The notes under the pieces: model-generated
What the model saw: only the letters and a program-made list of their open reading frames with translations
Told to the model about the DNA's origin: nothing
Databases searched by the model: none
Position numbers and translations under genes: made by a program
Shown here: positions 2,295-46,912 of the stretch, one piece after another
How the letters are laid out: each line of letters begins with the position of its first letter
Position numbering within the stretch: position 1 is the stretch's first letter
Origin: a bacterium
GTDB taxonomy: Bacteria > Krumholzibacteriota > Krumholzibacteriia > LZORAL124-64-63
Reading direction: 5' to 3'
Assembly (NCBI GenBank): GCA_018814885.1
Contig: JAHIYU010000177.1
Location: 40,025-104,024, forward strand
Length of the DNA stretch: 64,000 nt

Positions 2295-2448
2295 AACGCT
2301 GACGCAATTACCCCGTAAAGGATAATGTAAAAATGAATTAAGAAAAATGTAGAATCTCGACCGGCAATGACTTAACATAATATACATTATGCGCAATACT
2401 TTAAGTCTGTGACCCTATCGATTCCGGCACAACAGCTTGCTCCTTCTC

Positions 2449-2841
2449 TCAGGTAATGGGAACGCGATCCGCGAATTCATCGATGATCGGCAGACGGCAC
2501 ACCTCACCCGACAGCGCCTTGACGAAACCGATCACCGACAGCGTCAGGCAGACGATCATGGCGACCAGATGCAGGACGATGGTCAACAGCAGTCCGATCA
2601 GGGGCAATCGCCCCAGTGTGGCGTCGATGATGTTCAGCACGACATACAGCACGACCTCGGCGAAGAAGAGCGCGAAGCCCTGGCGGCAGTGGCCGGCCAG
2701 GAACGCACCCTTCTCCTTGACGGCCAGGATGGGGACGAAGACGAAGAAGCTGAGGTAGCACACGGCACCCAGCCAACGGTCGTTGTTCGTGGTCTCGGGC
2801 ATGATCCTCTCCCCCGCATTCCGGTTTGTTGCCGCCATCAT
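2449..2841 (-). CDS. DUF4870-family small integral membrane protein
   Basis: 130 aa with three or four TM helices. Characteristic WLGAVCYLSFF...PILAV...GHCRQGFALFF pattern of DUF4870 proteins. Confidence 0.6.
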   Translation of the reverse strand: MMAATNRNAGERIMPETTNNDRWLGAVCYLSFFVFVPILAVKEKGAFLAGHCRQGFALFFAEVVLYVVLNIIDATLGRLPLIGLLLTIVLHLVAMIVCLTLSVIGFVKALSGEVCRLPIIDEFADRVPIT

Positions 2842-2955
2842 ATGCCACCCGCCCGCATAAATCCACTACGTCCGACCGGACTTGTCCGGTCGCTGCGAAG
2901 CTGCTACGGTGCGCCCATCGAGCATGTACGCGGATGGACAGGAAGGTGGCCGCCT

Positions 2956-3345
2956 TTGTTCGGGTTCAAGAAAACGCCGAAGCCGGACCGCTGGAAGGGG
3001 CGGAATGTCCTGGAACTGGTACCCGTGCAACTGGTCGCCCACGAGGCCTCCGGCACGGATGGGCTTGTCCGGTTGCTGGAGCCGCGCTTCAGGGATCGTC
3101 TGCTGGGTAGGATCCTGCAGCCGCGGTTGCCTCGGGAGCGCGCCCACGTGAAGGTGGAGCTGGACGCGCGGGGCAGCGACATCTGGCGCGCCATCGACGG
3201 CCGGACCAGCGTCGCGGAGTTGGTCGGGCTCTTCGTCGCACGCCATCCAGACGATTCGCAGCAGGCGCCGGAAAGGGTCTGGCGCTTCCTCGCGGTCATG
3301 GAGCACCACGGCTTCATCGAGCTCGAGCCTACCACCGAGGCCTGA
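2956..3345 (+). CDS. PqqD-like (RiPP-recognition-element type) small protein
   Basis: C-terminal 90 aa match the PqqD pattern (ELDARGSDIWRAIDGRTSVAELVGLFVARHP...ERVWRFLAVMEHHGFIEL). Proposed TTG start at 2956 is preceded by GGAAGGTGG. The ATG at 2842 is in frame but abuts the divergent gene start. Confidence 0.45.
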   Translation: MFGFKKTPKPDRWKGRNVLELVPVQLVAHEASGTDGLVRLLEPRFRDRLLGRILQPRLPRERAHVKVELDARGSDIWRAIDGRTSVAELVGLFVARHPDDSQQAPERVWRFLAVMEHHGFIELEPTTEA

Positions 3346-8039: not shown

Positions 8040-8492
8040 CTAGTCCCCGATCAGTTGGCGCACCCGACCCATGAAGGCTTCCGGATCGATCGGCTTGTCG
8101 ACGAACATCTCCGGCTTGACCAGCCCCTCCTCGCGCATGGCCGCGATCATATGGCGCAACGATTCGCGCAGGCAGTCAAATGGCCGCTCCTCGGTGTTGG
8201 CGGCGGCGGAGTCTAACTCTTCAAGGGAGGCGGCGACACCGGTCAGCATAAGCACCGGAATGTCCTTCAGTTTCTCGTCCCTTTTCAGCTGTTTGAAGAG
8301 GGTGAAGCCGGTCTTTTTTGGCATCATCACATCCAGGACGATCAGGTCGACTGCGTTCTCCTGGATTATTTGCCAGCCCTCACTGCCGTCATTGGCGGTC
8401 AGGGTCTCGATCCCCCCCTCCTCTAGCACCACCGAGAGGAACTTCACGGCGTTCACATCATCGTCGATGATCAGAACCTTCTTGTCGCTCAT
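8040..8492 (-). CDS. Response regulator, receiver domain only (CheY-like)
   Basis: KVLIIDDD...LIVLDVMMPKKTGF...PVLMLTG. 150 aa, no output domain. ATGA overlap with the upstream kinase. Confidence 0.85.
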   Translation of the reverse strand: MSDKKVLIIDDDVNAVKFLSVVLEEGGIETLTANDGSEGWQIIQENAVDLIVLDVMMPKKTGFTLFKQLKRDEKLKDIPVLMLTGVAASLEELDSAAANTEERPFDCLRESLRHMIAAMREEGLVKPEMFVDKPIDPEAFMGRVRQLIGD

Positions 8493-10393
8493 GTTCCACT
8501 CCTCGAATTGGGATGGGATAACGGCAGGATAACCCTGAAGAGGGCGCCCCTGTCCGGTTTGGACAAAATGATGATTTCACCGGCGTGTAACCGGATGATC
8601 CGGCTGGTGAGGGCAAGGCCGAGGCCGGTGCCCCACTTCTTCTTGGTGCTGAAGAATGGAGTGAGCACGTTCTTACGGACCTCCTCGGTCATCCCCACAC
8701 CGTTGTCCTGGATCTCGACCAGGACTTGACAACCCTGGCCGCAGGCTGTGCGGCAGACTATTTCCGGTGTTTCCCCCTCTTTGTACTCCTTCATGTCACA
8801 GGCGTCCAGTGCGTTCGTCAACAGGTCCATGAAAGTCATGTGGATGAGGCCGGGATCGCAGTGGATCGTCGGCAGGTCAGGGTCCAATTCGACCCGCAGC
8901 GCCACACCATTCTCGGCAGCCACCTGGCGAATGGCCCCGGCGGTTTCGTTGACCATGGCGTTCAGGTCGGTCGGCTCCGTTTCGATCTGCCAGTTCCGTG
9001 CGTACTTCAACATCTTCCGGGAGAGGTCGCTGATCCTCTGGAAGCCGTCTTCGATCATCTCGCACCCCTCGCGGATACGATCCCGCCGGTCCCTCTTCAG
9101 CCCGACCTGGACGATGTACAGCCCTCCCCGCAACGTGTTGAGCATGTTCTTGATCGCATGCTGGATGGCGGTGACGGCGCGCCCTATAGCGACGGCCTGT
9201 TCCGACTCGAACAGCTGCTGTTGCAGTTCCCTCTCGGTGGTGACGTCCTTGCTGATGCCGAGGGTGCCGATGGCCCGCCCCTCCTGGTCCCGCAATCGCG
9301 AGAGGGTCAACAGCACGTGGCGCTCAGCGCCGTCGCTTGTCTTGAACCGGGTCTCGATGTTGGCCACGTAGCCCTGCCCGGCCAACCGGCTGATGGCCTT
9401 GGCCCGTTCCTGTGGATCGGCGAAGAGGGTCTCCATCGGCAAGCCGATGACCTCGTCACGCCTGAATCCGAGCGCCTGCTCGGCCCCTCGGTTGAAGGTC
9501 TCGATTTGCCCGGCTGGGTTAACGGTGATGATCAGATCGGCGGAGTTCTCGACGATGCCCTCGAGGTATTTGAGGGTGCGACGCAGCTCGGTCTGATGGG
9601 CCTGCAGCTTGGTGGCCATCGAGTTGAAGGATTCCTGCACCAAGCCGATCTCGTCGTCTCGTCGCGAGTCGAACCGGTAATCGAGGTGGCCGGCCCCGAG
9701 AGCGCCGATGCCGTCGACCAGGCTCCGCAACGGCGCGACCAGCAGTCGGCGGAAGGCGATCAGCAGGCCGCCGATTCCCAACACCATGCCCAGTACGGCG
9801 GCCAGGGCCAGGAGTCCGTTCAGCTCCGCGATCTGGCGGTCGATGTCGGCAAGGGAGTACTCGGTGTGCAGAAAACCGAGCAGCGGACCTGAGTTCAGGT
9901 GGGCATGGCAGCCCGCGGTTCGACACCCGGGCTCGTTCAGGATCGGCGTGACCACCTGCAATACCCGGCCGCCGTCCACTCCAGGCAAGATCTGCTGGTG
10001 CTGGTCCAGGCTGGCGGTTGGCAGAGAATCGTCGGCGTGACACTGGGCGCAGGTCCGATCCTCGCGTGCCATTATGGTGCCGGGTTCCATCAGACGGGAG
10101 ACGGCCACCAGTCCATCCGGGTGAGACACGAGGCAGATCTCGCAATAGGTAGGACTCCAGCCGGCGATATCCTCGATGTATTCGCGGACCCCGCTGTTGT
10201 TGCGGCTCATCATCATCTCTTGGATGCCGCTGCGAATCGAGGTGGAGTTGAACTGCAGGACGTCGTAAGCCACTTCGTTGGCCGCCCGACGGCCGATGTA
10301 GCTGCCGAGAAAGCCAGTACCGAGTAGGATGACGAGAACCGCAATGACCACCACCGCGCTCATCCGCCAGGCCAGCTTGCTGCGTCGTTTCAT
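8489..10393 (-). CDS. Sensor histidine kinase with periplasmic c-type-haem-motif domain, HAMP, PAS, HisKA and HATPase_c
   Basis: Two TM helices flank an ~160-aa periplasmic domain carrying CAQCH and CRTAGCH. PAS domain (ENSADLIITVNPAGQIETFN), phospho-acceptor H box and ATPase G boxes (DNGVGM, GTGLGL). ATG at 10393 overlaps the SDR stop (ATGA). Confidence 0.85.
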   Translation of the reverse strand: MKRRSKLAWRMSAVVVIAVLVILLGTGFLGSYIGRRAANEVAYDVLQFNSTSIRSGIQEMMMSRNNSGVREYIEDIAGWSPTYCEICLVSHPDGLVAVSRLMEPGTIMAREDRTCAQCHADDSLPTASLDQHQQILPGVDGGRVLQVVTPILNEPGCRTAGCHAHLNSGPLLGFLHTEYSLADIDRQIAELNGLLALAAVLGMVLGIGGLLIAFRRLLVAPLRSLVDGIGALGAGHLDYRFDSRRDDEIGLVQESFNSMATKLQAHQTELRRTLKYLEGIVENSADLIITVNPAGQIETFNRGAEQALGFRRDEVIGLPMETLFADPQERAKAISRLAGQGYVANIETRFKTSDGAERHVLLTLSRLRDQEGRAIGTLGISKDVTTERELQQQLFESEQAVAIGRAVTAIQHAIKNMLNTLRGGLYIVQVGLKRDRRDRIREGCEMIEDGFQRISDLSRKMLKYARNWQIETEPTDLNAMVNETAGAIRQVAAENGVALRVELDPDLPTIHCDPGLIHMTFMDLLTNALDACDMKEYKEGETPEIVCRTACGQGCQVLVEIQDNGVGMTEEVRKNVLTPFFSTKKKWGTGLGLALTSRIIRLHAGEIIILSKPDRGALFRVILPLSHPNSRSGT

Positions 10394-12120
10394 GTTGCCG
10401 AGCTCGCCTTCCGGGGCAGGGGCCCGCAACGATTCTCGATCTGGCGGAGCAGGTTCTCGAAGATAACCCCGTGGAAAGGCAAGAGCACTAGCCAGTATAA
10501 CCGGCCGAAGAGCGACCGGGTGTCGAAGTAAGCAACGATGACCACGCGGCGCTCTTTCCCTACACGCCGCACGAGGAACTCGAGCCAGGCCCGGCCGGGC
10601 AATTTCATCTCCGACCGCAACAGGAGGCGGCGCCCCGGCCGCAGGTCCTCCACCCGCCAGAAATCGATGACGTCGTTGATCTGCAGGCTGCGCCGCGCCC
10701 GCCGGCCACGGGCCGTGCCGACCCCGAAGAACACGCGATCAATCATTCCCCTCAATCTCCACATCCAGTTGTTGTGGAACCAACCCTCCTGGCCGCCGAC
10801 CTGGCAGAAGGATTGGAACAGGTCGGCGGGCGATTGCTGCGTGGGCAATGAATACACTGCCCTGTAGCGCGGCCGCGGCGTTACCTCGTACAGCTTGAGC
10901 GCGAGCTCGTGCGCCGGCGGGTAGGCATCGGACCAGCGGGTGGCGACGTTGTCCTGCTCCTCGCGGCTGAATGCGAGCAGCAGCGCCTCGCGGTACCCGA
11001 GCGGGCAGAATTCGAGATGCTGCCGTATGTGGTCGTTCTCGCAAACGGTGTCGCTCTTCAATCCGTCCATCAGGCAGAACACGATCGGCCCGGGCACCGG
11101 GGTGATCAGGCTGAGGAAGTACGAATGCAACCGCAACGCGGACAGGGGGCTGCGAATGAACGAGCGCCGCACCCGCAGGAGATCGGCCAGGTTCCGCACC
11201 ATTTGCTCGTACGTGAGGATATCCCGCCCGCCGATGTCGAACGACCGACCGGCCGTTTCCGGTTTTTCGAGCACGCCGACCAGGTATTTGACCACGTCCC
11301 GGATACCGATCGGCTGGCACAGCCGATTCGACCACCGGGGAAACAGGATGATCGGCAGGTTCTGTACCAGGTGCTTGAGGATCTCGAAGGAGGCGCTGCC
11401 CGAGCCGATGATGATGGAGGCCCGCAGGATCGTCACCGGTACACGACCCTGCTGAAGGGCGCAGGCCACCGCCTGCCGGCTACGCAGATGTTCCGAGGGG
11501 GCGGTCTCGGCACAACCGACACCGCCGAGGTAGATGATGCGCTGGACGCCGGCTTTTTCGGCCGCCTGGCGGATGTTCACGGCCGCCTCCAGATCGGCTG
11601 CAGCGAAACGCGCCTGCCCCATCACCATCGAGTGGATCAGGTAGTAGAGGGTATGCACCCCTTGCAGTGCCGGCCCGAGTGTTCCCGGGCACATCGCATC
11701 GGCCGCCACGATCTCGGCCCGGGGCCACCGTTCCGCGAACCGCATGGCGTCGGCCCGGACCATGGCACGCACGCAATAGCCACGGGCGAGCAGTTCGGGG
11801 ACCAGCCGGCCCCCGATGTACCCGGAGGCGCCGGTGACGGCCACGAGCCCGTCGTCAGGCCGGGGTGTAGTGTCGAGATCGTGGCAGAAGAGTGGGTCGG
11901 GACAACCGGGACAGGCAGGCGATCCGGCCAGTTCGGGATCCCGCAGGATCCCAGCCTGTCCCCAGTTGGGAAGCCGGTCGGAGCTGAAACCCCTGTCCAG
12001 TCGGTGGGTGAAGTTCCGGATCTCCGTGCGGACGGCGGCCATGCCGGCCCCGGACTGGAGGCTGGCTTCCCCTGCGGCCAGTCCCGCCGTGGAGACGGCC
12101 TTGTCCGACGAATCCACCAT
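10390..12120 (-). CDS. NAD(P)-binding SDR-family protein fused to C-terminal DUF2867 domain
   Basis: Rossmann motif VAVTGASGYIGGRLV. C-terminal GWFHNNWMWRLRGMIDRVFFGVG...DFWRVE pattern of DUF2867. Preferred ATG at 12120 is preceded by GGAGCAGA. The ORF can extend to 12180. Confidence 0.7.
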   Translation of the reverse strand: MVDSSDKAVSTAGLAAGEASLQSGAGMAAVRTEIRNFTHRLDRGFSSDRLPNWGQAGILRDPELAGSPACPGCPDPLFCHDLDTTPRPDDGLVAVTGASGYIGGRLVPELLARGYCVRAMVRADAMRFAERWPRAEIVAADAMCPGTLGPALQGVHTLYYLIHSMVMGQARFAAADLEAAVNIRQAAEKAGVQRIIYLGGVGCAETAPSEHLRSRQAVACALQQGRVPVTILRASIIIGSGSASFEILKHLVQNLPIILFPRWSNRLCQPIGIRDVVKYLVGVLEKPETAGRSFDIGGRDILTYEQMVRNLADLLRVRRSFIRSPLSALRLHSYFLSLITPVPGPIVFCLMDGLKSDTVCENDHIRQHLEFCPLGYREALLLAFSREEQDNVATRWSDAYPPAHELALKLYEVTPRPRYRAVYSLPTQQSPADLFQSFCQVGGQEGWFHNNWMWRLRGMIDRVFFGVGTARGRRARRSLQINDVIDFWRVEDLRPGRRLLLRSEMKLPGRAWLEFLVRRVGKERRVVIVAYFDTRSLFGRLYWLVLLPFHGVIFENLLRQIENRCGPLPRKASSAT

Positions 12121-12180
12121 TCTGCTCCATTCACGGAATCTAGGCGAGGGAAGGTCAATCGAAGCGGGGTAAATCACCAC

Positions 12181-12491: not shown

Positions 12492-14984
12492 TTGTTACTC
12501 GATCGCGAGTATGATTGGCTCTATGGAAGGAGCGTAAGTACTAACGCCGCTTGCAAAGGTATTGCGTACCAAGTGACGAGGGGGGCTGCCATCAAATTCA
12601 TCACCTATTTCCTGATCCTGCTGGCGCTGGGACTCGGCGAACGTAGCCTAGGGCCCCACGGCACGCGACTGACCACGCTGCTGGCCCTCTGTGCTGTGCT
12701 TCCGCTCCTGTTGCGCGGTCTCTGGCTGATCGACTGGCGCATGTGGCGGGCCTCGCTCCCCGGTCTCGCCGCGATCGCGACTGCCGTCTGCTGGTACACG
12801 ACCGCGGACGCCGCGCAGTACTTCGCCCTGGGGGCGTCGCTGGCCTGCCTGTCTATCGCGGTGCGGCGCACCGTCCCCCGGGACGTCCTGGCCGACGCCT
12901 CACCGGCATCTACGGTCATCGCCTTCGCCCTTTTCGTGGCCGTCCGGGACCATCTCGACCTCTGGACCCAGCTGATCACTGCCTCCATACGGACAACGTT
13001 CTGGTTCTCGAATCTATGGGGGCAGTCGTTGCGTCTGGGGCCGACCTATTCCGGCCTCTGGCTGTTGGTCGCCTGCCTGCTGGCGCTGGTGATGATCGCC
13101 ACCGGAACGCGCCACCGGCCCTGGCGGCTGATCGCCGCCTTCGTGCTGCTGCCGCTGCTGGCCTTGGCCGCCATCCCCTTGCGCGGCCTGGTGCCGACCC
13201 ACTATCACGGCGCGCCGGCGACCGCCGTCCTCGCCTGGCGCCTGGTCCAGTTCATCCTGCTGCTGGCGCCGGTAGCTCTGCTGACCGCGACCCGCGGCCG
13301 GGACGAAGTGTTGGCGGCACAAGCCCCGCCGCACGCCGCCCCTTGGCGCGGGATCGCCACGGTTGCGTGTGCGGCCGCGGCTCTGGGCGGTCTCGTGCTG
13401 TTGAGCTGGAGCCGGCCCGTTCCTTGGCATCCCGGGCGGGTCTTGATCGACACCCGCGGGTCGTTCAACATGGAACCCTTCCGCTGGGGCGCCTACGCCC
13501 GCGATGTAGCCCAGGGCGCTTCTCTGGCCACGCTGCCACATGTGCTGGGCGCGTACGGTTTCGCGACGGCGGCATCTGACACCATGATCGACGCTGCCGC
13601 GCTGGCCGAGACAGACGTCCTGGTGGTCATGAATCCCGACACCTTCTACACCGAAGCCGAGCACGCGGCCGTCTGGGAGTTCGTCGACCGCGGAGGCGGC
13701 CTGCTGGTCCTGGGTGATCACACCAATATCATGGGTGTGATGGAGCCCTTCAACGCCCTGCTGCAGCCGGTGGGCATCGGACTGAATTTCGATTCAGTCA
13801 TTCCCAGGGTCGACCGCTGGTCTTGGTACGGCTGCATGCGTTTCCACCCCCATCCGCTGACACGGGGCCTGCGCGACGAGGCCGAGATCAAGCTCAGCGT
13901 GGGCGCCAGCCTGACGCTGGCAGCCGGGGCGATTACCTTGTTGAGCGGACGGGACGCCTACGCCGACGCCGGCAACTGGGACAACGCGCAGGGTGCCTAC
14001 CTGGGCAACATGGCCTTCGACCGGTCCGAGATCGAGGGTGATCTGCTCCTGGCTGCCGAGGCGCCCTACGGCCGGGGAAAGGTGATCGCCTTCGGGGATA
14101 CCTCGCCCTTCCAGCGCACCACCGTCAGCCTGTCGCACGAGCTGATGGCCAGGATCTTCAACTATCTCGGCACGCCCGGCGGCGCAGTGGCCGGGCGGCA
14201 GGTGCGCGGCGCCGGCGCGATACTGCTGGTCGTCGCCGGGACTCTGCTGCTGGCGCTCGGCAGGCGCCGCCCCATGGCGCCGGCGGTGTTCGCCATCCTG
14301 GCCTCGATCTGGCTGCTGGCGCTGGCAGGGCACGCGACATTCGCCCTGCCGCCGGCGCCGGTCGGCGAGAACGTGGCGTGGCTGGACCTGTCCCACGGCA
14401 ATCGTGTGGACCTGCATGCCGGCCGGGATGACGGTCTCGGCGGTCTGCAGAACCATCTGTGGCGCCACGGCTACGTGCCGCTGGCGATGCGCGCGTTCGA
14501 CCGCGACCGGCTGCTGGCCTCGGAGCTCTTCGTCACGGTGGCGCCGGCCTTCCCCTATTCTCGGCACGAGTGCGCCGCCCTGCGCGCCTTCGTCGAGAAC
14601 GGGGGCCTGCTGATCGTGTCCGCCGGCTACGAGGAGCGCAACGGTGCCGCGGACCTGCTGGCTGAATTCGGCTATGCTGTCGGTTCCACGCCCCTGGGCT
14701 CGGCGCACGTCGCCGAGACGCTGCTCACGGGACAGCGTGTCTACATGCACGAATCCTGGCCGGTGCTCCAGCCGGCCGGCCAGGGCGAGATCTGGGTCCG
14801 GTGCTGGGGGTACCCCATCGTGGTCTTCGAGACGTTCGGGGCGGGCGGTCTGCTGGTGATCGCCGATTCGATGTTCCTCAGCGAGAAGAGGCTGGAGAGC
14901 CCCGACGAATTCGTCGAGGAGAATATCGATTTCCTCCGCGCGGCGATCGAGACCGCACGGCAGCGGATGGGAGGTGAAAAGTGA
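12492..14984 (+). CDS. Large polytopic membrane protein, paralogue A (N-terminal multi-TM domain plus two repeated extracytoplasmic domains)
   Basis: 830 aa. Hydrophobic N-terminal ~300 aa, then two ~200-aa domains each with VLVV..P....E..AV..FV..GGGLLVLGDH-type motifs, separated by a TM hairpin. Clear paralogue of the next gene. Confidence 0.6.
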   Translation: MLLDREYDWLYGRSVSTNAACKGIAYQVTRGAAIKFITYFLILLALGLGERSLGPHGTRLTTLLALCAVLPLLLRGLWLIDWRMWRASLPGLAAIATAVCWYTTADAAQYFALGASLACLSIAVRRTVPRDVLADASPASTVIAFALFVAVRDHLDLWTQLITASIRTTFWFSNLWGQSLRLGPTYSGLWLLVACLLALVMIATGTRHRPWRLIAAFVLLPLLALAAIPLRGLVPTHYHGAPATAVLAWRLVQFILLLAPVALLTATRGRDEVLAAQAPPHAAPWRGIATVACAAAALGGLVLLSWSRPVPWHPGRVLIDTRGSFNMEPFRWGAYARDVAQGASLATLPHVLGAYGFATAASDTMIDAAALAETDVLVVMNPDTFYTEAEHAAVWEFVDRGGGLLVLGDHTNIMGVMEPFNALLQPVGIGLNFDSVIPRVDRWSWYGCMRFHPHPLTRGLRDEAEIKLSVGASLTLAAGAITLLSGRDAYADAGNWDNAQGAYLGNMAFDRSEIEGDLLLAAEAPYGRGKVIAFGDTSPFQRTTVSLSHELMARIFNYLGTPGGAVAGRQVRGAGAILLVVAGTLLLALGRRRPMAPAVFAILASIWLLALAGHATFALPPAPVGENVAWLDLSHGNRVDLHAGRDDGLGGLQNHLWRHGYVPLAMRAFDRDRLLASELFVTVAPAFPYSRHECAALRAFVENGGLLIVSAGYEERNGAADLLAEFGYAVGSTPLGSAHVAETLLTGQRVYMHESWPVLQPAGQGEIWVRCWGYPIVVFETFGAGGLLVIADSMFLSEKRLESPDEFVEENIDFLRAAIETARQRMGGEK

Positions 14985-17527
14985 TGCGCCGTTTCTGGCT
15001 CGCCCTCTGGCTGGCCGTTCTGGCTTGGGACGGTTTCTCCCCGCATATCGAATCCGCGGCGGCTCCCCCGCTGGCCTGGGCGGCCCTGATCGCCTGCGGC
15101 CTGCTGTTGATCTCGCGCCGGCGCGGCGACCAGCCCCTCTTCACCCGGTGGCCGTCCGTGGTGTGCGCGCTCGCCGCGTGCGGCGCCGGCTGCCTGCTGC
15201 CCTGGCCAGAAAGGGTGGGACCGCTGCTGGTCGCCGGTGGGCTGATACTCGGGCTGGTCCCCGTGCTGAACCGGTTGACCCGGGGCAACAACTGGCGGAT
15301 ACCGTCGGCCGCCGGCGGCCTGTTGTGGCTCAGCGCCGGCGTGTCACACGCTTACCGGGTATGGGAGGCGTCGTATCACGACCTGGACTTCATGGCCGGA
15401 CCGCTGGCTGCGTTTTACCGTCTGTTAGGCCTGCCGGCGGCCGCTGATCCGCCGCTGGTGCATCTGCAGGTGGTCGGCAACCTGCAGACGATCGATTGCA
15501 CCCTCGAGAAGCTGGTGGGCCATCCCCTGCCGGTGATCGTTGTGGCCGGCCTGGTCGCGATCTTCCTGCTGAACGGCCGGCGCGCCGGTTGGCGCCTGCC
15601 GTTGCTGCTGCTGTTGCTGGCGGCCGTCTACGCCTTCTTCAGGTCGGCGGCCCTGGGCCTGGCTCTCGAGCAGATGAACGAGGCCGGCATCTACTACCGG
15701 CGCATCTGGGTCTTTGGCAGCCTGCTGCCGCTGATCCTGTTGCTGACGTGGGTTGTGCCGCCGCTGCGGCATGAACGGGGCGCCGACCTTGCACCGGCAG
15801 GGCGCGTGTCGGTCGCCGCCACCGGACGCGGATGGACGGATCCGCTGCTGGCGGTCCTGCTGGGTGTCGGCCTGGCCGGTGCCCTCGGCTTCTACGATCC
15901 TGGCGATCCCAAGCCCGGCCGTGTGATGATCGACGAGAACCATTCCAACTGGGAGTGGTCGACCGTCGCGTTGAACACCGAGAGCTACGGCGTGCAGACC
16001 GTCTACAACTACTCCGAACTGGTGCGCTACCTGCGCCACTTTTACGCGGTGGACCAGAACTTCGCGGTGCTCGGCGACAGCCTGCTCGCGGCTGTGGACG
16101 TGTTGATTCTCAAGACGCCGACCAAACCCTATGCGGACGCGGAAGTGGACGCCGTCGTGCGCTTCGTCGAGCGGGGCGGCGGCCTCTGGCTGGTGGGCGA
16201 TCACACCAACGTCTTCGGCATGAGCACGAACCTGAACAGGGTGGGCCGGCATTTCGGCATGACCTACAACTACGACGCGGTCATAGACCTGCTGACCTAC
16301 GGTCGGCAGTACTACCGGCACCCGCGTCTGTTCGCCCACCCCTCGCTGCGCCACCTGCCGCCACTCTTGCTGGCCACTTCCTCCAGCATGGTCGGCCCGC
16401 TGCTCAGCCAGCCGGTCATGATCGGCCGTACCCTGCTCTCGGACCAGCTTGACTACTCCGTCAACGCGTTCTTCGGGGATTTCCGGCCGAGCGCCGGCGA
16501 ATCCTTCGGCGCGATGCTGCAATCCGTGGCCGTGCCCCGCGGCCGCGGTCGCGTGCTGGGCTTCAGCGACAGCACCATCTTCTCGAACTTCTTCATGTTC
16601 ATCCGCGGCAAGCCGGAGCTGGCCCTGGGCAGCGTGGCCTGGCTGATGTCGACCAACCGGTTCGGCTGGGTGCGTCACGCCCTGCTGGCGATGGCGGGGA
16701 TCGGCGCGCTGCTGCTTCTGGTGCGGTTGCCGCGACAGCACGGCGCGGCGCCCTTCGTCCTGCAGATGATCCTGGCCACTCTCTTCTTTGCCCTGACCGC
16801 GCGGGCGCTCGATCGCTGGACCGCGGCATGGTCCACGCTGCCGCGGCCGCACACTCCCCTGCCCACGGTGGCCTTCGACCGCGGCAAGACCGACTACGAC
16901 ATCCCGGACATCCGGGAGGTCGCCGATGAATCGCCCGCCAGCTTCCACACCTTCTACGTGTGGACCCAGCGTACGGGCTGGATCCCGACCACCGGGCTCT
17001 TCGAGGACTGCCTGGCCGCTGCGCGGGCGACCGTGCTGATCAGGCCCAGCGGCCACTACCATGCCACCGAACTGGCGGAACTGGAGGACCACGTGAGGCA
17101 GGGTGGCGGTCTGCTGGTGCTGGACTCGCCGCACAGCCGCCACTCGGCGGCGCAGTCGATCCTGCAGGCGTTCGGCATGGGCTTCAGCCCCGCGGAGATG
17201 GAGAGCGTCACGGTCAGCCCCGCCGCCGGCGGCCTCGAGACGACCGAACTGCACCACGTGCGCGGCGTGACCGGCGGCCGGCCGGTCCTGGTCGCGTCCG
17301 ACGGCACCGCCGTGCTCGCGTACACGGACTTCGGCCGCGGCAGGGTAGTGGCGATGTGCGCCGCGGACAACTTCACCGACGCGGTGATGGGTACCACCTC
17401 GGCCGTCCCCACGCCGGAGCAGCTGGCGCTCTATCGGATCGAGTACCTTATCTTCGAGGAACTGCTGGATACCGCTGGGGCCTGGCCCGCCCGCGACGGG
17501 GAACCGCCGGCAGGAGGTGGCGGCTAG
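14981..17527 (+). CDS. Large polytopic membrane protein, paralogue B (same architecture as 12492-14984)
   Basis: 848 aa, GTG/ATG start overlapping the upstream stop (GTGATG). Motifs VDVLILKTP...AEVDAVVRFVERGGGLWLVGDHTN and ATVLIRPSGHYHATELAELEDHVRQGGGLLVLDSP. Confidence 0.6.
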   Translation: MMRRFWLALWLAVLAWDGFSPHIESAAAPPLAWAALIACGLLLISRRRGDQPLFTRWPSVVCALAACGAGCLLPWPERVGPLLVAGGLILGLVPVLNRLTRGNNWRIPSAAGGLLWLSAGVSHAYRVWEASYHDLDFMAGPLAAFYRLLGLPAAADPPLVHLQVVGNLQTIDCTLEKLVGHPLPVIVVAGLVAIFLLNGRRAGWRLPLLLLLLAAVYAFFRSAALGLALEQMNEAGIYYRRIWVFGSLLPLILLLTWVVPPLRHERGADLAPAGRVSVAATGRGWTDPLLAVLLGVGLAGALGFYDPGDPKPGRVMIDENHSNWEWSTVALNTESYGVQTVYNYSELVRYLRHFYAVDQNFAVLGDSLLAAVDVLILKTPTKPYADAEVDAVVRFVERGGGLWLVGDHTNVFGMSTNLNRVGRHFGMTYNYDAVIDLLTYGRQYYRHPRLFAHPSLRHLPPLLLATSSSMVGPLLSQPVMIGRTLLSDQLDYSVNAFFGDFRPSAGESFGAMLQSVAVPRGRGRVLGFSDSTIFSNFFMFIRGKPELALGSVAWLMSTNRFGWVRHALLAMAGIGALLLLVRLPRQHGAAPFVLQMILATLFFALTARALDRWTAAWSTLPRPHTPLPTVAFDRGKTDYDIPDIREVADESPASFHTFYVWTQRTGWIPTTGLFEDCLAAARATVLIRPSGHYHATELAELEDHVRQGGGLLVLDSPHSRHSAAQSILQAFGMGFSPAEMESVTVSPAAGGLETTELHHVRGVTGGRPVLVASDGTAVLAYTDFGRGRVVAMCAADNFTDAVMGTTSAVPTPEQLALYRIEYLIFEELLDTAGAWPARDGEPPAGGGG

Positions 17528-18552
17528 TCTGCGTCGTGGCTCCGCAGCCAATCCCGCCACAGGACGAGTACGCTGTCCGGCACCTCCGGCAGGGGATCCC
17601 CGCGCCAGAGGCGCGCCCCCGCCTGCGCTTCCTCTTCCGGAAGCAGATGCTGCCCCTCGCGATCTAGGAACCGCGGCCGGCGGCGGATGTTGCCGTCGGT
17701 CCCCACGTAATCGGAGCAGACGCCGCCGGCGGCCCCGCCCTCGTTCTCCCAGACCTGGTTGCCGCGGAAGGTGGCGGGCGCGTCGTCGTCCAGCTGGAAG
17801 ACGGCGCTCTCGCCGCGGTTGTAGGCCAGGACGTTCTCCACGATCAGGGCCGGCGAGGAATCGCAGTAGATGCCGCCGCCCCCGCTGCTGGCGGCGTTGC
17901 CGACGATCGTGTTGGCGTAGATGACCGGGCAGGAGTTGAGGGCCAGGATCCCGCCGCCGCTGACGGCGCTGTTGTCGAAGATCAGGTTGTTGTAGACCAG
18001 CGGCGCACAGTCCTGGTAGGCGGAGATCGCCCCCCCCAGATAGCCTTCGTTGTCGCGGAAGACGTTGAAGGCGATCACCGGGCGGCAATCGTAGTTCGTG
18101 TAGACGCCCGGACCCAGGTAGCCCAGGTGGTCGCGGAAGACGTTGTTGATGATCAGCGGGCTGCTGCGGTGCAGGTAGATGCCGCCGCCGCCCGAGTTGG
18201 CATGGGGCCGGCGGCCGTTCTGGAGGGTGAGGCCGGCGATCGTGGTCGTGGAATCGATGCCGCGGCCGAAGAGGCAATAGCGATCGCCGGCGGCGTCGAT
18301 GATCGTCGAATCGGGCCCCGCGATACCGATCAGCGAGACGCCTGAACGCAGGGTGAAGCTGCCCCGGTAGGTGCCCGGGTTCAGCAGCAGGGTATCTCCC
18401 GGTGCGGCGGACTGCAGCCGTGCGGCCAGACCCTGGACGGAATCGGCCGGAGACGGGAACGTGTCGATCCGGGCGGCGGCGGCGGGACCGCCTGTCAGTC
18501 CGCAGGCGAGGCCCACGGCGAGAAACATCAGGATCGCGGCGCGGCGCGGCAT
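17524..18552 (-). CDS. Secreted right-handed parallel beta-helix (PbH1 / NosD-like) repeat protein
   Basis: Signal peptide (MPRRAAILMFLAVGLACGLTGGPAAAA). Repeated PbH1-like units (GGGGIYLHRSSPLIINNVF, GGAISAYQDCAPLVYNNLIF, GGGILALNSCPVIYANTIV, GGGGIYCDSSPALIVENVL). Start at 18552 (ATG). Confidence 0.7.
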   Translation of the reverse strand: MPRRAAILMFLAVGLACGLTGGPAAAARIDTFPSPADSVQGLAARLQSAAPGDTLLLNPGTYRGSFTLRSGVSLIGIAGPDSTIIDAAGDRYCLFGRGIDSTTTIAGLTLQNGRRPHANSGGGGIYLHRSSPLIINNVFRDHLGYLGPGVYTNYDCRPVIAFNVFRDNEGYLGGAISAYQDCAPLVYNNLIFDNSAVSGGGILALNSCPVIYANTIVGNAASSGGGGIYCDSSPALIVENVLAYNRGESAVFQLDDDAPATFRGNQVWENEGGAAGGVCSDYVGTDGNIRRRPRFLDREGQHLLPEEEAQAGARLWRGDPLPEVPDSVLVLWRDWLRSHDAD

Positions 18553-18637
18553 GCGACTCCCTCGCTGCTCGCGAAGGTGCCGGGGACCGGAGCCCCCGGC
18601 ACCTCGTGTTTGATCCGTTCTCCGCGGGGAGAGCGGA

Positions 18638-19609
18638 CTACTTGCGGTACTGGGTCTTGACTTCACCCCAGCTGCAATCGTCGTTGCTGACCTCGCAGGT
18701 CGGACCGATCGTACATGCGATACCATCGGTACAACCCGTAGTGCCGCTCGTGCACACGGTCGCTGCGGTGCAAGCGCCGGCTGCCGACGTACAGCTCTGG
18801 CCACCCGTACAGGTCGGACCGAACGTACAGGCATTGGCTGCGGAGGTGCAGTTGATGCCGGCCGTACAGCCGGTCGCGTCGAAGGTGCAGGCGTTGCCTC
18901 CGGTACAGCCGGGACCCGCGGTGCAGGTGCCGTCGGCGGAGGTACACGCCGTACCCAGAGTACAGGCGTCGGGACCGGTCGTGCAGTTCAGGCCACCGGT
19001 ACACTGCGTGCCGATGGTACAGGCGTTCGACCCGAAGGTGCAGTTCTCACCGAGCGTACAGTTGGTACAGTCGGTGCAGACATCCCACGTGCAACGCACG
19101 CCGGCCGTGCATGCGGCAGGCCCGAACGTACAGTTGGCACCCAGCGTGCACCAGGCGCCGGACGTACAGGTCTCGCCGGCCGTGCACCCGGAGATGCTGG
19201 TGCAGGTTCCACCGACCGTGCAACCGGAGCCCTGGGTACAGGATTCCGCGCCGGTGCACAGAGGCGTCTGTGTGCAGTCGAGTGCCGCCGTACATGTCTG
19301 GGCCGTACAGAGAGAACCCTGCGTACACCCTTCCTCTTGTGTGCAGAGTGCTGTCCCCCCACTGGTTGTTTCGTCGAACTTGTCGGGGTTGCCGGCGACG
19401 GTTTCCGCGGCGATGGCCGCGTCACCCACCCGCCAGACTTTCTGCTGCATCCCGTTTGCAGACAGGTCGGAGATGTGCTTGTACAAGGGCGATTCAACAT
19501 CAACCTCTCCTGCGATCCCCCGGGCGAATGCCGGCGTCGATCCCAGGACGACGGCGAGCACCAGCACGGTGCAAGCCATCAATAGCATTTTCTTCATCAT
19601 GATTATCAC
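18638..19609 (-). CDS. Secreted Cys-Thr hexapeptide-repeat protein (about 38 tandem CTxGxx units)
   Basis: Sec signal peptide. Good Shine-Dalgarno (AAGGGGGTG) 8 nt upstream of the ATG. Residues ~89-312 are built from C-T-x-[GAS]-x-x repeats. Ends ...CEVSNDDCSWGEVKTQYRK. Confidence 0.7.
   Translation of the reverse strand: MIIMMKKMLLMACTVLVLAVVLGSTPAFARGIAGEVDVESPLYKHISDLSANGMQQKVWRVGDAAIAAETVAGNPDKFDETTSGGTALCTQEEGCTQGSLCTAQTCTAALDCTQTPLCTGAESCTQGSGCTVGGTCTSISGCTAGETCTSGAWCTLGANCTFGPAACTAGVRCTWDVCTDCTNCTLGENCTFGSNACTIGTQCTGGLNCTTGPDACTLGTACTSADGTCTAGPGCTGGNACTFDATGCTAGINCTSAANACTFGPTCTGGQSCTSAAGACTAATVCTSGTTGCTDGIACTIGPTCEVSNDDCSWGEVKTQYRK
18676..19345. repeat. Coding tandem repeat, 18-nt (6-codon) period, about 37 copies
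   Basis: tgc-acN-NNN-ggN/gcN-NNN-NNN periodicity visible on the minus strand. The complementary strand yields the artefactual VQ-rich ORF 18402..19622. Confidence 0.8.
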
Positions 19610-33201: not shown

Positions 33202-34271
33202 GGGGAATCGTCTGCCTTGACCGGCAACGGGTCGAGATCGTAGCTGGCGCGCAGGAGGGCGGCCTGGTCGCGCGCCTGGGACATGCCGGGGTACGAGCCG
33301 GCGCGCAGCTTGTAGAGGGTCAGCCCGCGCTCGTCGGTCACCTCGCTGATCAGCAGCCCGGGAAGGCGCTCGCGCCAGTCATCCAGGAATTTCAACGCGC
33401 GGGCCCTGTCGGCGAAAGCGGCGAACTGGAGGGCGTAGCGTCCGGAAGCCGTTGCCGGCGCCGGAGATTCTTCCCCGAACGGCGTGGAATCGTGCGCGCT
33501 CGCCGACGGAGCTTCGAGACTCCGCTGCAACTCCTCCAGACGCAGCTCCTGCTCGGCGACGAGGGCGGCGGGCAGGGAGCGCGAGAAGCGGTGTTCCAGT
33601 TCGCGGCGAAGGCGGATGGCGTACTGGGGGTCCGTCTCGGCCGCCAGCATCCAGTCCACCAGCAGGATCTCGGCGCGACACGGCGTATCCTCGGTCCGGC
33701 CTGCCATCTCGAGGTAGCGCCGGGCCAGCGCCGGCTCGCCGTCGGCCAGCGCGAGTCGGGCCAGCAGATAACGGGCCCGGTCGTAATCGGGATCGCCCGG
33801 GGGCACGGCGGCCAGGGCGCCCCGGCTGCGCGCGACATCTCCCCGGGCGCGCCAGGCCAGTCCGCCCAGCAGGGTCGTGGAGGCCGCGGTCTCGCCGTTC
33901 CCCAGGGCTATTTCCTCCAGCGAGGCGATCGCCGCCGCGTAATCGCCAGCTCCGAAAGCCTGCCAGGCGGCGTCTGCGAGGAGCAGGTTGCGCGCCGGGG
34001 AGCCGAGATCGGGGGCGTCGAGCAACTCGCGTCGCAGTTCAGCGGCCTCCGCCGGGGATTCCGCGAGACGGAAGCGCCAGTAGAGAGACTGCGGGGTGGC
34101 GGCGTCGTTGGCCGTTAGTGCGGCGGTGAGTTCGCGGGCGTCCGTGAAGCGGCCCACGGCGAACAGGGAGCGTACGTCGTGCCAGTCGCCGCTGGGCGGA
34201 TCCGTGCCGCTGGCGACGGTTGCCGAGGCAACGGCGACGAGCAGGGCCGACCTCAGCACCGCTCGCCTCAT
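33198..34271 (-). CDS. Periplasmic TPR-like repeat protein with C-terminal SPOR domain
   Basis: Signal peptide MRRAVLRSALLVAVASA. C-terminal SPOR-like YALQFAAFADRARALKFL...YKLRAGSY. ATGA overlap with lapB. Confidence 0.65.
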   Translation of the reverse strand: MRRAVLRSALLVAVASATVASGTDPPSGDWHDVRSLFAVGRFTDARELTAALTANDAATPQSLYWRFRLAESPAEAAELRRELLDAPDLGSPARNLLLADAAWQAFGAGDYAAAIASLEEIALGNGETAASTTLLGGLAWRARGDVARSRGALAAVPPGDPDYDRARYLLARLALADGEPALARRYLEMAGRTEDTPCRAEILLVDWMLAAETDPQYAIRLRRELEHRFSRSLPAALVAEQELRLEELQRSLEAPSASAHDSTPFGEESPAPATASGRYALQFAAFADRARALKFLDDWRERLPGLLISEVTDERGLTLYKLRAGSYPGMSQARDQAALLRASYDLDPLPVKADDSP

Positions 34272-43516: not shown

Positions 43517-44269
43517 TCAGTCCCGCAAACCGGCGCAGATCATGAGGGAAGCCGTTTCGTCCCGGTCCAGTTCGCGGAATTCGCCCACCGGCAGGTCGGC
43601 CAATTCGATATCGCCGACGCCCGTGCGGTGCAGGGCTTCGACCTCGGCGCCCACGGCCCTGAACATGCGCCTCACCTGGCGGTTGCGCCCCTCGCGCAGG
43701 AACATGCGCCAGCGACGGCCGTCGTGCCCCACGGGCGTCAATCTCGCCGGCAGGCAGGGCCGTCCGTCCAGGCAGACGCCGCCTTCGCGCAGCAGGGGCA
43801 ACGCCCTTTCGTCGAGCGGTCCGGCCAGCACGATCTCGTAGGTCTTCCAGACCTCGCTGCGGGGACGGCAGAGCGCCTGGTGCAGATCCCCGTCGTCCGT
43901 CCAAATGAGCAAGCCGCTGGTGTCCGCGTCAAGGCGCCCCACGGGGACCGCGCCGTCCGGCAGGCCGTGGCGGGCCGCGTAGACGTCGAGGCACGGCTGG
44001 CGCCCCTGCGGGCGCAGCGAGGAGATCACGCCGACGGGCTTGTGGAAGGCGAAGACCCGCCACCGCGCGGGCCATGACACCGGGCGGCCGTCCACCGTTA
44101 CCGCGTCGCTTGTCGGATCGATGCGCCGGCCCAGCTCTGCAATCACCACGCCGTCCACGCAGACGCGCCCCGCGCGTATCAAGCTCTCGACTGCGCGCCG
44201 GGAGCCGAGGCCGGCGCGCGCCAGGAATCTGTTGAGGCGCGGCAATGCGGGCTCAGACCGCCGGTTCAT
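43517..44269 (-). CDS. RsuA/RluB-family rRNA pseudouridine synthase
   Basis: S4 domain (LNRFLARAGLGSRRAVESLI) and catalytic VGRLDADTSGLLIWT motif. Start at ATG 44269. Confidence 0.8.
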   Translation of the reverse strand: MNRRSEPALPRLNRFLARAGLGSRRAVESLIRAGRVCVDGVVIAELGRRIDPTSDAVTVDGRPVSWPARWRVFAFHKPVGVISSLRPQGRQPCLDVYAARHGLPDGAVPVGRLDADTSGLLIWTDDGDLHQALCRPRSEVWKTYEIVLAGPLDERALPLLREGGVCLDGRPCLPARLTPVGHDGRRWRMFLREGRNRQVRRMFRAVGAEVEALHRTGVGDIELADLPVGEFRELDRDETASLMICAGLRD

Positions 44270-44969
44270 CCGACAGCTCGTCGTCGCGGGCAACCTGGCC
44301 GGTGTCCACCGCCGGGTCAGTCTCCGACTCGCCCGCCGCGGCTTCCTCGTGGCGCACGACCACGATCTCGTCGCCATGAACGGCCACCGTCTCGAAATCC
44401 TCGTCCGAAACGTCCTCGCCCATTTGCGCGGCGAACCTCTTGATCTCCTCGCGGTCGTTGATGATGCCCTCCAGCTCGGGCAGAGCGGGCAACTGGTGGA
44501 GACCCTTCAGACCCATGTAGTTGAGAAACTCGCGGGTGGTCCCGTAGAGGATGGGATTGCCGACGGTCTCGCTGCGGCCGGCGACGGTGATCAGGCTGCG
44601 CTCGGTCAGGGTCGAGAGCACACCGCTGACCTGCACGCCCCGGATGTCCTCGATCTCCATGCGCGTGACCGGCTGCCGATAGGCGATGATGGCCAGCACC
44701 TCGAGGGCCGCCTGGGACAGGCGGACGTAGCGGCGGCCGCGGTAGAGCTTCTGGATCAGAGGGGCGTACTCCGGCCGCGAGGCGAGTTGCCAGCCGCCGC
44801 CGAACTCGACAATGGTGAAGGCGCGGCCCTGCGCCTCGTAGTCGGCGTTGAGCTCGTCTACGGCCTCGCGGAGGATCTTGGCGTCGCCGTCGCCGAAGAT
44901 GGCCCGGAGGCGGATCGGGGTGAGCGGCGTGTCGGTCGCGAACAAGAGGGCTTCGAGGTCCTGCTTCAC
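44253..44969 (-). CDS. scpB: Segregation and condensation protein B
   Basis: LEALLFATDTPL...ILREAVDELNADY winged-helix ScpB pattern. GTG start at 44969, overlapping the scpA stop. Confidence 0.8.
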   Translation of the reverse strand: MKQDLEALLFATDTPLTPIRLRAIFGDGDAKILREAVDELNADYEAQGRAFTIVEFGGGWQLASRPEYAPLIQKLYRGRRYVRLSQAALEVLAIIAYRQPVTRMEIEDIRGVQVSGVLSTLTERSLITVAGRSETVGNPILYGTTREFLNYMGLKGLHQLPALPELEGIINDREEIKRFAAQMGEDVSDEDFETVAVHGDEIVVVRHEEAAAGESETDPAVDTGQVARDDELSDEPAV

Positions 44970-45817
44970 GAGTCCACCCCCCCCCCGGACGCGGCGGCGG
45001 CCTGCTTGCCGGCGCCGCTCACCCAGATGGGTCCGTTGGTCTCGGTCTGGAGGATGCGCAGCACGCCGCGCTTGGCCAGCTCGAGGATGGCCATGAAGGT
45101 GACGACGACTTCCATCTTGATGTGATCGTCCTTGAAGAGCTCGTCGAAGCGGAGCGTGGCCCCGCCGGCCAGGCGCGACCGGATGAGCTTGACCTTCTCG
45201 GTGACGGTGTAGACTTCGCGCGTGACGTTGTGCACCGCCTCCTTGGTCACCCGTTCGAATACCTGCGAGAGCGCGAGCAGCAGCTCGTACATGTTCAAGC
45301 GAAGTGCCGGCGGTTCGGTGTTCTCCCCGAGGAAGGGGTAGCGCTGCTCGCGCACGTGGAGGCGGCCGCGCTCCCGTTCCCGTTCCTGCAGGTGCCGGGA
45401 CATCTCCTTGAATCGTTTGTACTCGAGCAGACGGCGCACCAGCTCGGCGCGCGGATCCTCGTCGTCGAGCTCCTCGTCGTGGGGCTGGGACGGGAGCAGC
45501 AGGCGCGACTTGATGCGCACCAGAGTGGCGGCCATGACGATGAAATCGCCGGCCAGGTCCAACGACAGCGCCGTGATGACCTCGAGATAGCCGAGGTACT
45601 GCGCGGTGATGTCGGCTATCGGTATGTCGTAGATGTCGATCTCGTCCTTCTGGATCAGAAAGAGCAGCAGATCGAGCGGTCCCTGGAAATCGGGCAGGGC
45701 GATGTCGTAGGCCTCGCTGGTGTGGAAGTACTCCAGCTCGGGCGGCAGTTCCCAGGAAATGACGCGTTCGCCGTCGGCAGCGGGTGCGGGCGTGTTGTCT
45801 CTCGCGGACTCGTTCAA
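44966..45817 (-). CDS. scpA: Segregation and condensation protein A
   Basis: FQGPLDLLLFLIQKDEIDIYDIPIADIT kleisin motif. scpA-scpB-pseudouridine synthase order. Confidence 0.85.
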   Translation of the reverse strand: MNESARDNTPAPAADGERVISWELPPELEYFHTSEAYDIALPDFQGPLDLLLFLIQKDEIDIYDIPIADITAQYLGYLEVITALSLDLAGDFIVMAATLVRIKSRLLLPSQPHDEELDDEDPRAELVRRLLEYKRFKEMSRHLQERERERGRLHVREQRYPFLGENTEPPALRLNMYELLLALSQVFERVTKEAVHNVTREVYTVTEKVKLIRSRLAGGATLRFDELFKDDHIKMEVVVTFMAILELAKRGVLRILQTETNGPIWVSGAGKQAAAASGGGVDS

Positions 45818-45829
45818 GACGGCTCCTTG

Positions 45830-46813: not shown

Positions 46814-46912
46814 GTGAGACGTTCCTTTGCAAGTCGTGAGAGGCCTCGAGCCGAGTCCAGGGCGTGCGCGACGAGCGCCAACGTTACCATCGGTGCCGAC
46901 ATCTGTCAAAGC

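Follow-up and report, generated by a model that had tools for sequence, protein, structure and literature searches.

A putative two-haem sensor domain of the Geobacter haem-c type in a membrane-bound histidine kinase from an uncultured bacterium

An extracytoplasmic sensor domain with covalently bound haem c would allow periplasmic redox potential, or nitric oxide (NO) and carbon monoxide (CO), to be read directly at the membrane. The family of such domains, with one and with two attachment motifs, is said to have been described originally by Londer et al. in 2006. In the Geobacter sensors the signature is CX2-4CH, and a protein may carry one or two such motifs (PMC8396549). In GSU0935, His144 is the proximal and Met60 the distal haem ligand; in the one-haem domains oxidised haem is high-spin and reduced haem is low-spin with His/Met ligation, the midpoint potentials are −156 and −251 mV, NO and CO reversibly displace Met60, and a redox-linked change of axial ligation has been proposed to be the signal (PMC8396549). 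Homologues of GSU0582 and GSU0935 with an additional haem-binding motif are GSU0599, GSU0591, Adeh_2011 and Adeh_3383 (PMC8396549; PMC3831638), the latter two being the two-motif homologues in Anaeromyxobacter (PMC3831638). We found no biochemical or structural study of any two-motif member in the literature; the papers we found give detailed structures and spectroscopy for one-haem members. Here we describe a sensor histidine kinase encoded in a 64,000-nucleotide stretch of the bacterial contig JAHIYU010000177.1 (hereafter the window, with positions counted from its first letter). Judged by its sequence, the kinase has a sensor with two motifs that falls within the known family of haem-c periplasmic sensors and is not a new kind of system. 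Its periplasmic part very probably bears two covalently bound haems, and we consider it likely that it is a two-haem version of the single-Cache/PAS-like haem-c sensors of GSU0582/GSU0935 type, with the ligands and signalling proposed below.

The kinase gene occupies positions 8489–10393 of the minus strand, with its ATG at 10393, and encodes 634 residues in the order transmembrane segment 1 (TM1), haem sensor domain, TM2, HAMP, PAS, DHp and HATPase_c. Pfam matches cover HAMP (residues 214–265), PAS (277–389) and HATPase_c (513–626). We regard this minus-strand frame as a real gene because the G+C content of its third codon positions (GC3) is 0.82, it encodes Pfam domains, and the identical 634-residue product is called in four independent assemblies, the metagenome-assembled genome (MAG) GCA_018822565.1 among them. 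The plus-strand open reading frames (ORFs) across 9519–10327 were set aside as shadow artefacts of this high-GC gene. TM1, or signal anchor (10301–10363, minus strand, residues ∼11–31), is a hydrophobic stretch conserved in relatives, and because the basic N-terminus MKRRSKLAWR precedes it, the topology is probably N-in. TM2 (9749–9817, minus strand, residues ∼193–215) runs into HAMP, which starts at residue 214. The flanking hydrophobic segments and the basic N-terminus indicate that residues ∼32–192 (9818–10300, minus strand) would face the periplasm, and profile comparison, AlphaFold2 and Foldseek assign this segment to the single-Cache/PAS-like sensor domains.

Examination of the minus-strand translation between TM1 and TM2 highlights the three Cys clusters that the original prediction had pointed out: CEIC (C84–C87; 10133–10144), CAQCH (C115–H119; 10037–10051) and CRTAGCH, which we extend to CRTAGCH-A-H so as to include His165 (C157–H165; 9899–9925). 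The interval first given for them, 9905–10145, covers the kinase codons from Cys84 to that of His163 and has a surplus base at 10145; the translation of 9905–10144 is CEICLVSHPDGLVAVSRLMEPGTIMAREDRTCAQCHADDSLPTASLDQHQQILPGVDGGRVLQVVTPILNEPGCRTAGCH. A spacing of 40 residues had been stated for the motifs. This suits the last two, in which C115 and C157 are 42 residues apart, but not CEIC and CAQCH, in which C84 and C115 are separated by 31. The periplasmic part holds six Cys, including the one CxxC without a following His. At the frequencies that Cys (1.1%) and His (2.7%) have in the proteins of the window, ∼5 × 10−4 CxxCH motifs are expected by chance in 160 residues, and the joint expectation for both haem-type motifs is ∼3 × 10−7, so that their presence far exceeds chance.

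Both haem-type motifs are conserved far beyond this kinase. An exhaustive HMMER search with its N-terminal 199 residues against 1.84 billion cluster representatives returned 478 relatives with an expectation value (E) ≤1e-3, each representing one cluster at 50% identity; for 76 relatives E was ≤1e-10. Word-indexed protein searches returned one match for the sensor domain, 13 for a 35-sequence alignment and two for a 21-orthologue alignment. We then counted residues in the best 150 of the 478 relatives, aligned to the family hidden Markov model, using only the sequences that cover each column. In the first motif C115 is kept in 141/143, C118 in 142/143 and H119 in 142/143, and the spacer is always two residues (142/142). 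In the second motif C157, C162 and H163 are each kept in 139/139, and the spacer is four residues long in 130 sequences, two in six, three in three and five in one. Met61 (10211–10213, minus strand) is kept in 142/145 and His165 in 123/139 (88%). The orthologues at ∼41–55% identity come from MAGs labelled Latescibacterota, Planctomycetota, Phycisphaerales and ‘Fibrobacteraceae’, and every full-length sensor-bearing MAG orthologue that we aligned (20 sequences) retains both motifs. Non-conservation of the Cys and His residues had been named beforehand as the finding that would speak against haem; instead, CAQCH and CRTAGCH proved nearly universal. On these alignments the two-motif version is a large and tightly conserved family, not confined to a few Geobacter and Anaeromyxobacter genes. 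Its signature is a CxxCH followed after ∼38 residues by Cx4CH-x-H, together with an invariant Met, and the domain is mostly fused to HAMP histidine kinases. Neither Pfam nor NCBIfam has a dedicated model for the two-motif domain, and the source names of these proteins are generic (‘ATP-binding protein’, ‘PAS domain S-box-containing protein’, ‘sensor kinase’). The CxxCH...Cx4CH-x-H signature could seed such a model.

The CEIC pair does not share this conservation. It was correctly listed as present in the sequence, but it belongs to this lineage only: among the relatives listed, Cys at positions 84 and 87 is confined to the query and to the 74%-identical fragment P0001, and no MAG orthologue at ∼41–55% identity has CEIC, the nearest ones varying at both positions. 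In the wider family 121/145 relatives have Arg at position 87, and Glu, Arg and Asp predominate at position 84. This lack of conservation led us to reject CEIC as a third haem or metal site without a His. Sequence comparison thus places CEIC outside the conserved design and indicates that it is not a haem site. The pair adds two periplasmic Cys on the predicted strand β1, beside the two haem-attachment sites and in place of family-consensus residues; a disulfide is possible, or perhaps the pair has no function.

Homology to structurally solved domains assigns the kinase sensor to the Geobacter family. A profile of 35 family sensor domains matched 3B42 (GSU0935, E=3.8e-9) and 3B47 (GSU0582, E=1.1e-7) over two collinear stretches, the N-terminal helices and the haem site in the C-terminal part. 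Furthermore, PF21563 (Mcp40H-20_sensor) is matched by 42 of 81 full-length relatives (E ≤0.01, best 1.3e-7). Both results bear out the kinship with Geobacter-type haem-c sensors that had been proposed from the motifs. Other sensor matches among the 81 are sCache_3_2 (12 relatives) and Cache_WalK (6), and the outputs are HAMP (80), HATPase_c (72), HisKA (64), chemoreceptor (2) and GGDEF (2). The family's invariant Met aligns to the first Met of ‘YMMKGD’ in 3B42, and its ‘PIxNEPxC-xxxx-CH’ aligns to ‘PFPNEQRC-QS-CH’, with Cx4CH set against CQSCH of 3B42/3B47. The query alone gives the same alignment there, its sub-threshold match to 3B47 having E=0.59 at the Cx4CH site. Chain index 110 of the structure corresponds to the published proximal ligand His144 of GSU0935, an offset of 34; because this offset is constant, the aligned Met would be Met60 by the numbering so deduced. 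Between the two aligned stretches, 39 profile positions (101–140) face 23 residues of 3B42 without alignment, and the first CxxCH lies in this longer segment. Aligned on the CxxCH of 3B42/3B47, Cx4CH occupies the ancestral haem site of the family, and CAQCH is the added motif. The original prediction was right about the CX4CH spacing of CRTAGCH, but in calling it a variant beside a canonical CAQCH it had the two roles reversed.

Several features of the kinase sensor can be compared directly with GSU0935 and GSU0582. As in those proteins, the domain sits between two membrane helices and is followed by HAMP, a haem-attachment motif lies near the C-terminal end of the fold, and the Met lies on the N-terminal helix. 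The Geobacter domains have one haem motif, whereas the kinase domain has two; their canonical site is CxxCH, whereas that of the kinase is Cx4CH; and they lack both the first CxxCH and the His at +2 that gives the CH-x-H of the kinase family. The segment before β3 is ∼16 residues longer in the kinase and bears the extra CxxCH. The output also differs, being a HAMP-PAS histidine kinase here and a chemoreceptor in GSU0935 and GSU0582. GSU0599 has two motifs as the kinase does and is likewise a two-component sensor protein; the likeness of GSU0599, GSU0591, Adeh_2011 and Adeh_3383 to the kinase is drawn from their published description. The host of the kinase belongs to an uncultured GC-rich lineage whose nearest relatives here are Latescibacterota and Planctomycetota MAGs, and not to the Desulfuromonadales or Myxococcota.

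The predicted fold of the sensor domain is single-Cache/PAS-like. An AlphaFold2 model of residues 31–195, built from only 15 alignment rows, has a mean predicted local distance difference test score (pLDDT) of 73.4 and a predicted template-modelling score of 0.69. In it a long N-terminal helix is followed by a second helix, a β-hairpin, a short helix with CAQCH (domain residues 83–89), two strands, the Cx4CH loop, a strand and a C-terminal helix. Foldseek gives a probability of 1.00 to the single- and double-Cache sensor domains of WalK, KinD, CitA and DctB and to 3B42. The Cache domains of WalK, CitA, DcuS, KinD and DctB are the best structural matches (E from 1e-6 to 8e-4, template-modelling score 0.72 to a WalK model). 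They share the membrane topology of the kinase, and WalK is also weakly matched in sequence by the family profile. They differ in that their Cache pocket binds small molecules and that they contain neither a covalent cofactor nor a CxxCH. Closer in cofactor is DUF3365/Tll0287 (PF11845), which has an extracytoplasmic Cache fold with covalent haem c on a short insert and is made up of proposed NO or redox sensors. A preprint treats GSU0582 and GSU0935, together with DUF3365/Tll0287, as haem-containing Cache (sCache_heme) domains, retrieves them within DUF3365/Tll0287 sequence datasets and places the haem-Cache CxxCH on a short helix inserted between β3 and β4 (PMC12889525, Deshpande et al. 2026). 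A search of the same preprint for the terms two-haem, second-haem, dihaem and CX4CH found no mention of them. We rejected membership of the kinase sensor in DUF3365/Tll0287, as it has no Pfam match to PF11845 at E ≤0.01 and this family is not among the 25 most matched by the 81 relatives. A classical multihaem cytochrome c (c3/c7, NapC/NirT, NapB or NrfA) was rejected too, there being no cytochrome match in Pfam and only sensor domains among the Foldseek results. The profile does give weak local matches around the CxxCH to NrfA and NapB (E=0.006–0.25).

The number of haems turns on the first motif. Solved family members bear one haem, at the site that aligns with Cx4CH. The kinase might likewise hold a single haem at this ancestral site, and its first CxxCH might play a structural part, bind a metal or work as a thiol/disulfide redox switch. 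Two points suit such a reading: the solved structures offer no counterpart to the segment with the first motif, and the literature we found contains no biochemical characterisation of a two-motif member. Against it, H119 is as conserved as both Cys (142/143), as expected of a proximal haem ligand but not of a disulfide, and the spacer of this motif is exactly two residues in 142/142. His165 goes with the two-motif state, the first-motif segment itself yields the weak local profile matches to NrfA and NapB haem sites, and the literature regards the extra motif as an additional haem-binding motif (PMC8396549; PMC3831638). We therefore consider a single haem unlikely.

With six periplasmic Cys, one CxxC among them lacking a His, the domain could also be imagined to hold no haem at all and to act as a metal or thiol sensor, its Cys/His clusters binding zinc or an iron–sulfur centre or forming disulfides. 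Zinc ribbons and redox-active disulfides can indeed be built from CxxC pairs. However, the CEIC pair is not conserved, and the pattern that is conserved is strictly Cys-Xn-Cys-His, accompanied by an invariant Met whose counterpart in the alignment is a proven haem ligand. Moreover, homologues carry crystallographically defined covalent haem c. A sensor devoid of haem is accordingly the least credible explanation of the motifs, and we give it next to no weight.

Under the preferred two-haem reading we infer as follows how the haems are covalently attached and liganded, what the sensor responds to and what the extra haem does. TM1 would export the sensor domain, and a cytochrome-c maturation system would attach both haems covalently. 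Haem 2, at C157xxxxC162-H163, would be liganded proximally by His163; its distal (sixth) ligand would be the labile Met61, which lies on the N-terminal helix running on from TM1. Haem 1 would be held at C115xxC118-H119 on the added short helix, with a sixth ligand that is probably His165 or, in this clade, His91 (10121–10123, minus strand). His165 is the best candidate because it is kept in 88% of the two-motif relatives and absent from the one-haem Geobacter sequences. His91, a candidate alternative axial ligand, is invariant in the orthologue clade (21/21 in orthologue alignment A3), and Lys takes its place in 72/145 of the wider family. It occurs in 7/16 relatives without His165 versus 15/120 with it (Fisher p=0.005, a value confounded by shared ancestry).

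We conjecture that signalling follows a scheme drawn from the Geobacter domains. Because Met61 and Cx4CH align with the Geobacter ligand residues, the same ligand switch would most likely operate at haem 2: haem coordination would alter when this sensor haem is oxidised or reduced, or when NO, CO or another small ligand displaces Met61. The change would shift the N-terminal helix and TM1/TM2, then HAMP and the cytoplasmic PAS, and the signal would set autophosphorylation and phosphotransfer to the single-domain response regulator encoded next to the kinase. The extra haem, probably bis-His, would most likely serve for electron entry or relay or for tuning the potential, and in this way haem 1 would link redox carriers of the periplasm with the sensor haem.

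Several observations weigh against this two-haem sensor. On its own the query matches PF21563 at 17.8 bits (E=0.0041, residues 138–165), below the gathering score of 27. The structural model is moderately confident and is worst at the Cx4CH loop, where pLDDT falls below 50. His165 is absent in 16/139 relatives. The identity of the signal, whether redox potential, NO, CO or another, is borrowed from one-haem Geobacter domains and from no two-haem member. No cytochrome-c maturation gene was found among the genes of the 64-kb window scanned with Pfam, and no other ORF of at least 50 residues in the window contains a CxxCH. Finally, five orthologues have lost the whole periplasmic domain, so that TM1 is nearly joined to TM2, and have kept HAMP, PAS and kinase (L013:8001-9404, L016:89-1990, L017:7515-9683, L022:7833-9692 and L024:6634-8382). 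In three of them (L017, L022 and L024) the PAS-like segment is duplicated. Because the rest of the system is kept in these five, the haem domain is dispensable in some lineages.

The partner of the kinase is encoded directly downstream. The gene at 8040–8492 (minus strand) encodes a single-domain response regulator of 150 residues, with a receiver (REC) domain matched by Pfam Response_reg, a C-terminal tail of ∼45 residues and no DNA-binding domain. Its start overlaps the kinase stop by four nucleotides, and in nearly all orthologous loci the kinase gene is followed immediately by a regulator gene. This regulator is the conserved, cognate partner of the kinase. It scores 88.6 bits against NCBIfam NF045717 (DVU0259/DivK-like), below the cutoff of 160. 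This part of the window would be better annotated as encoding a kinase, putatively a dihaem sensor of redox state or of gases, together with its single-domain response regulator.

Upstream of the kinase, the gene at 10390–12180 (minus strand) encodes a protein of 596 residues, in which an N-terminal extension of ∼110 residues without a family match precedes an NAD(P)-binding domain of SDR type (∼111–233) and a C-terminal DUF2867. Four-nucleotide ATGA overlaps chain this gene, the kinase and the regulator. The stop of the DUF2867 gene overlaps the kinase start, and the two are apparently translationally coupled in this lineage only. The gene is immediately upstream of the kinase in four assemblies of the same organism; a tblastn search found no match to it beside any of ∼26 orthologues. 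The original prediction had invoked this coupled NAD(P)-binding protein in support of a redox-sensing module. The ATGA overlap is real, but with the neighbour missing from all orthologous loci we ruled out a functional module of kinase and SDR/DUF2867 protein.

In related genomes the kinase has a different neighbour. At 14 related loci a six-gene Qmo/DsrJOP-like cluster lies beside the kinase–regulator pair. The genes encode two HdrA/QmoA-B-like flavoproteins, QmoC (NCBIfam 368 bits, cutoff 300), a small membrane-anchored three-haem cytochrome (67.7 bits against the DsrJ model, below its cutoff of 100), DsrO (297 bits, cutoff 200) and an NrfD/DsrP-like membrane protein. The cluster spans L010:398-7923 in CP070631.1, a Latescibacterota MAG chromosome. 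In the other loci it lies upstream on the same strand in L001, L002, L004, L006, L007, L013, L015 and L019, divergently in L017, L018, L022 and L024, and downstream in L025. The cluster has the appearance of a Qmo module combined with a DsrJOP module, DsrMK being absent; a limited literature search found no description of such a combination. Because a periplasmic three-haem cytochrome is among the cluster's products, the lineages concerned produce c-type cytochromes, and a redox partner in the periplasm is available to them. This neighbourhood suggests a link to periplasmic electron transfer, which we offer as a lead and not as a demonstrated function. The 64-kb window has no copy of the cluster.

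A cytochrome-bearing complex beside so many related loci raises another explanation, that the two-haem domain serves chiefly for electron transfer. It would be a small dihaem cytochrome, anchored in the membrane and fused to a kinase, that exchanges electrons with a respiratory complex, signalling being secondary or absent. Stand-alone haem-Cache proteins have likewise been proposed to be redox rather than sensory proteins (PMC12889525). Yet HAMP follows the domain in 80/81 relatives and the kinase ATPase is present in 72/81, with few chemoreceptors or GGDEF domains, which is the architecture of a sensor. In addition, the sensor-less orthologues L013, L017, L022 and L024 still adjoin the Qmo/DsrJOP-like cluster, so that the cluster appears independent of the haem domain, and the kinase of the window has no such complex nearby. 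We think a primarily electron-transferring role very improbable.

The neighbourhood can also be joined to the two-haem sensor itself. In a bolder and rather doubtful extension, the two-haem Cache domain would be a distinct, widespread class of sensors coupled to the respiratory chain (at least 478 clusters at 50% identity) that reports the redox poise of a Qmo/DsrJOP-type complex. If so, the bis-His haem would take electrons directly from periplasmic cytochromes, for example the DsrJ-like three-haem protein, and pass them to the Met-ligated haem. Kinase output would then report on a specific Qmo/DsrJOP-type membrane complex and not on a diffusible gas.

The genes of the window that were scanned with Pfam are mostly housekeeping genes, including SurE, PCMT, MutS, MutL, MiaA, Der, UvrC, ribosomal protein S1 and others. 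A 302-residue protein at 2437–3345 (plus strand) has as its sole Pfam match a C-terminal PqqD-like domain, of the type that forms recognition elements for ribosomally synthesized and post-translationally modified peptides; no obvious radical S-adenosylmethionine partner is encoded directly beside it. Three ORFs at 44040–47320 and 33492–34118 (plus strand; 361, 732 and 208 residues) have no Pfam match at E ≤1e-4 and an unusual base composition, with G+C at first codon positions of 0.78–0.88, equal to or above GC3. Their products may be of low complexity, or the frames may have been miscalled. Divergent from the kinase operon, two adjacent paralogous genes at 12492–17527 (plus strand) encode large membrane proteins of 830 and 848 residues, each with DUF4350/GIFT-like domains (IFT52 GIFT, ABC_transp_aux), and are followed at 17524–18834 (minus strand) by a gene for a beta-helix/NosD-like protein.

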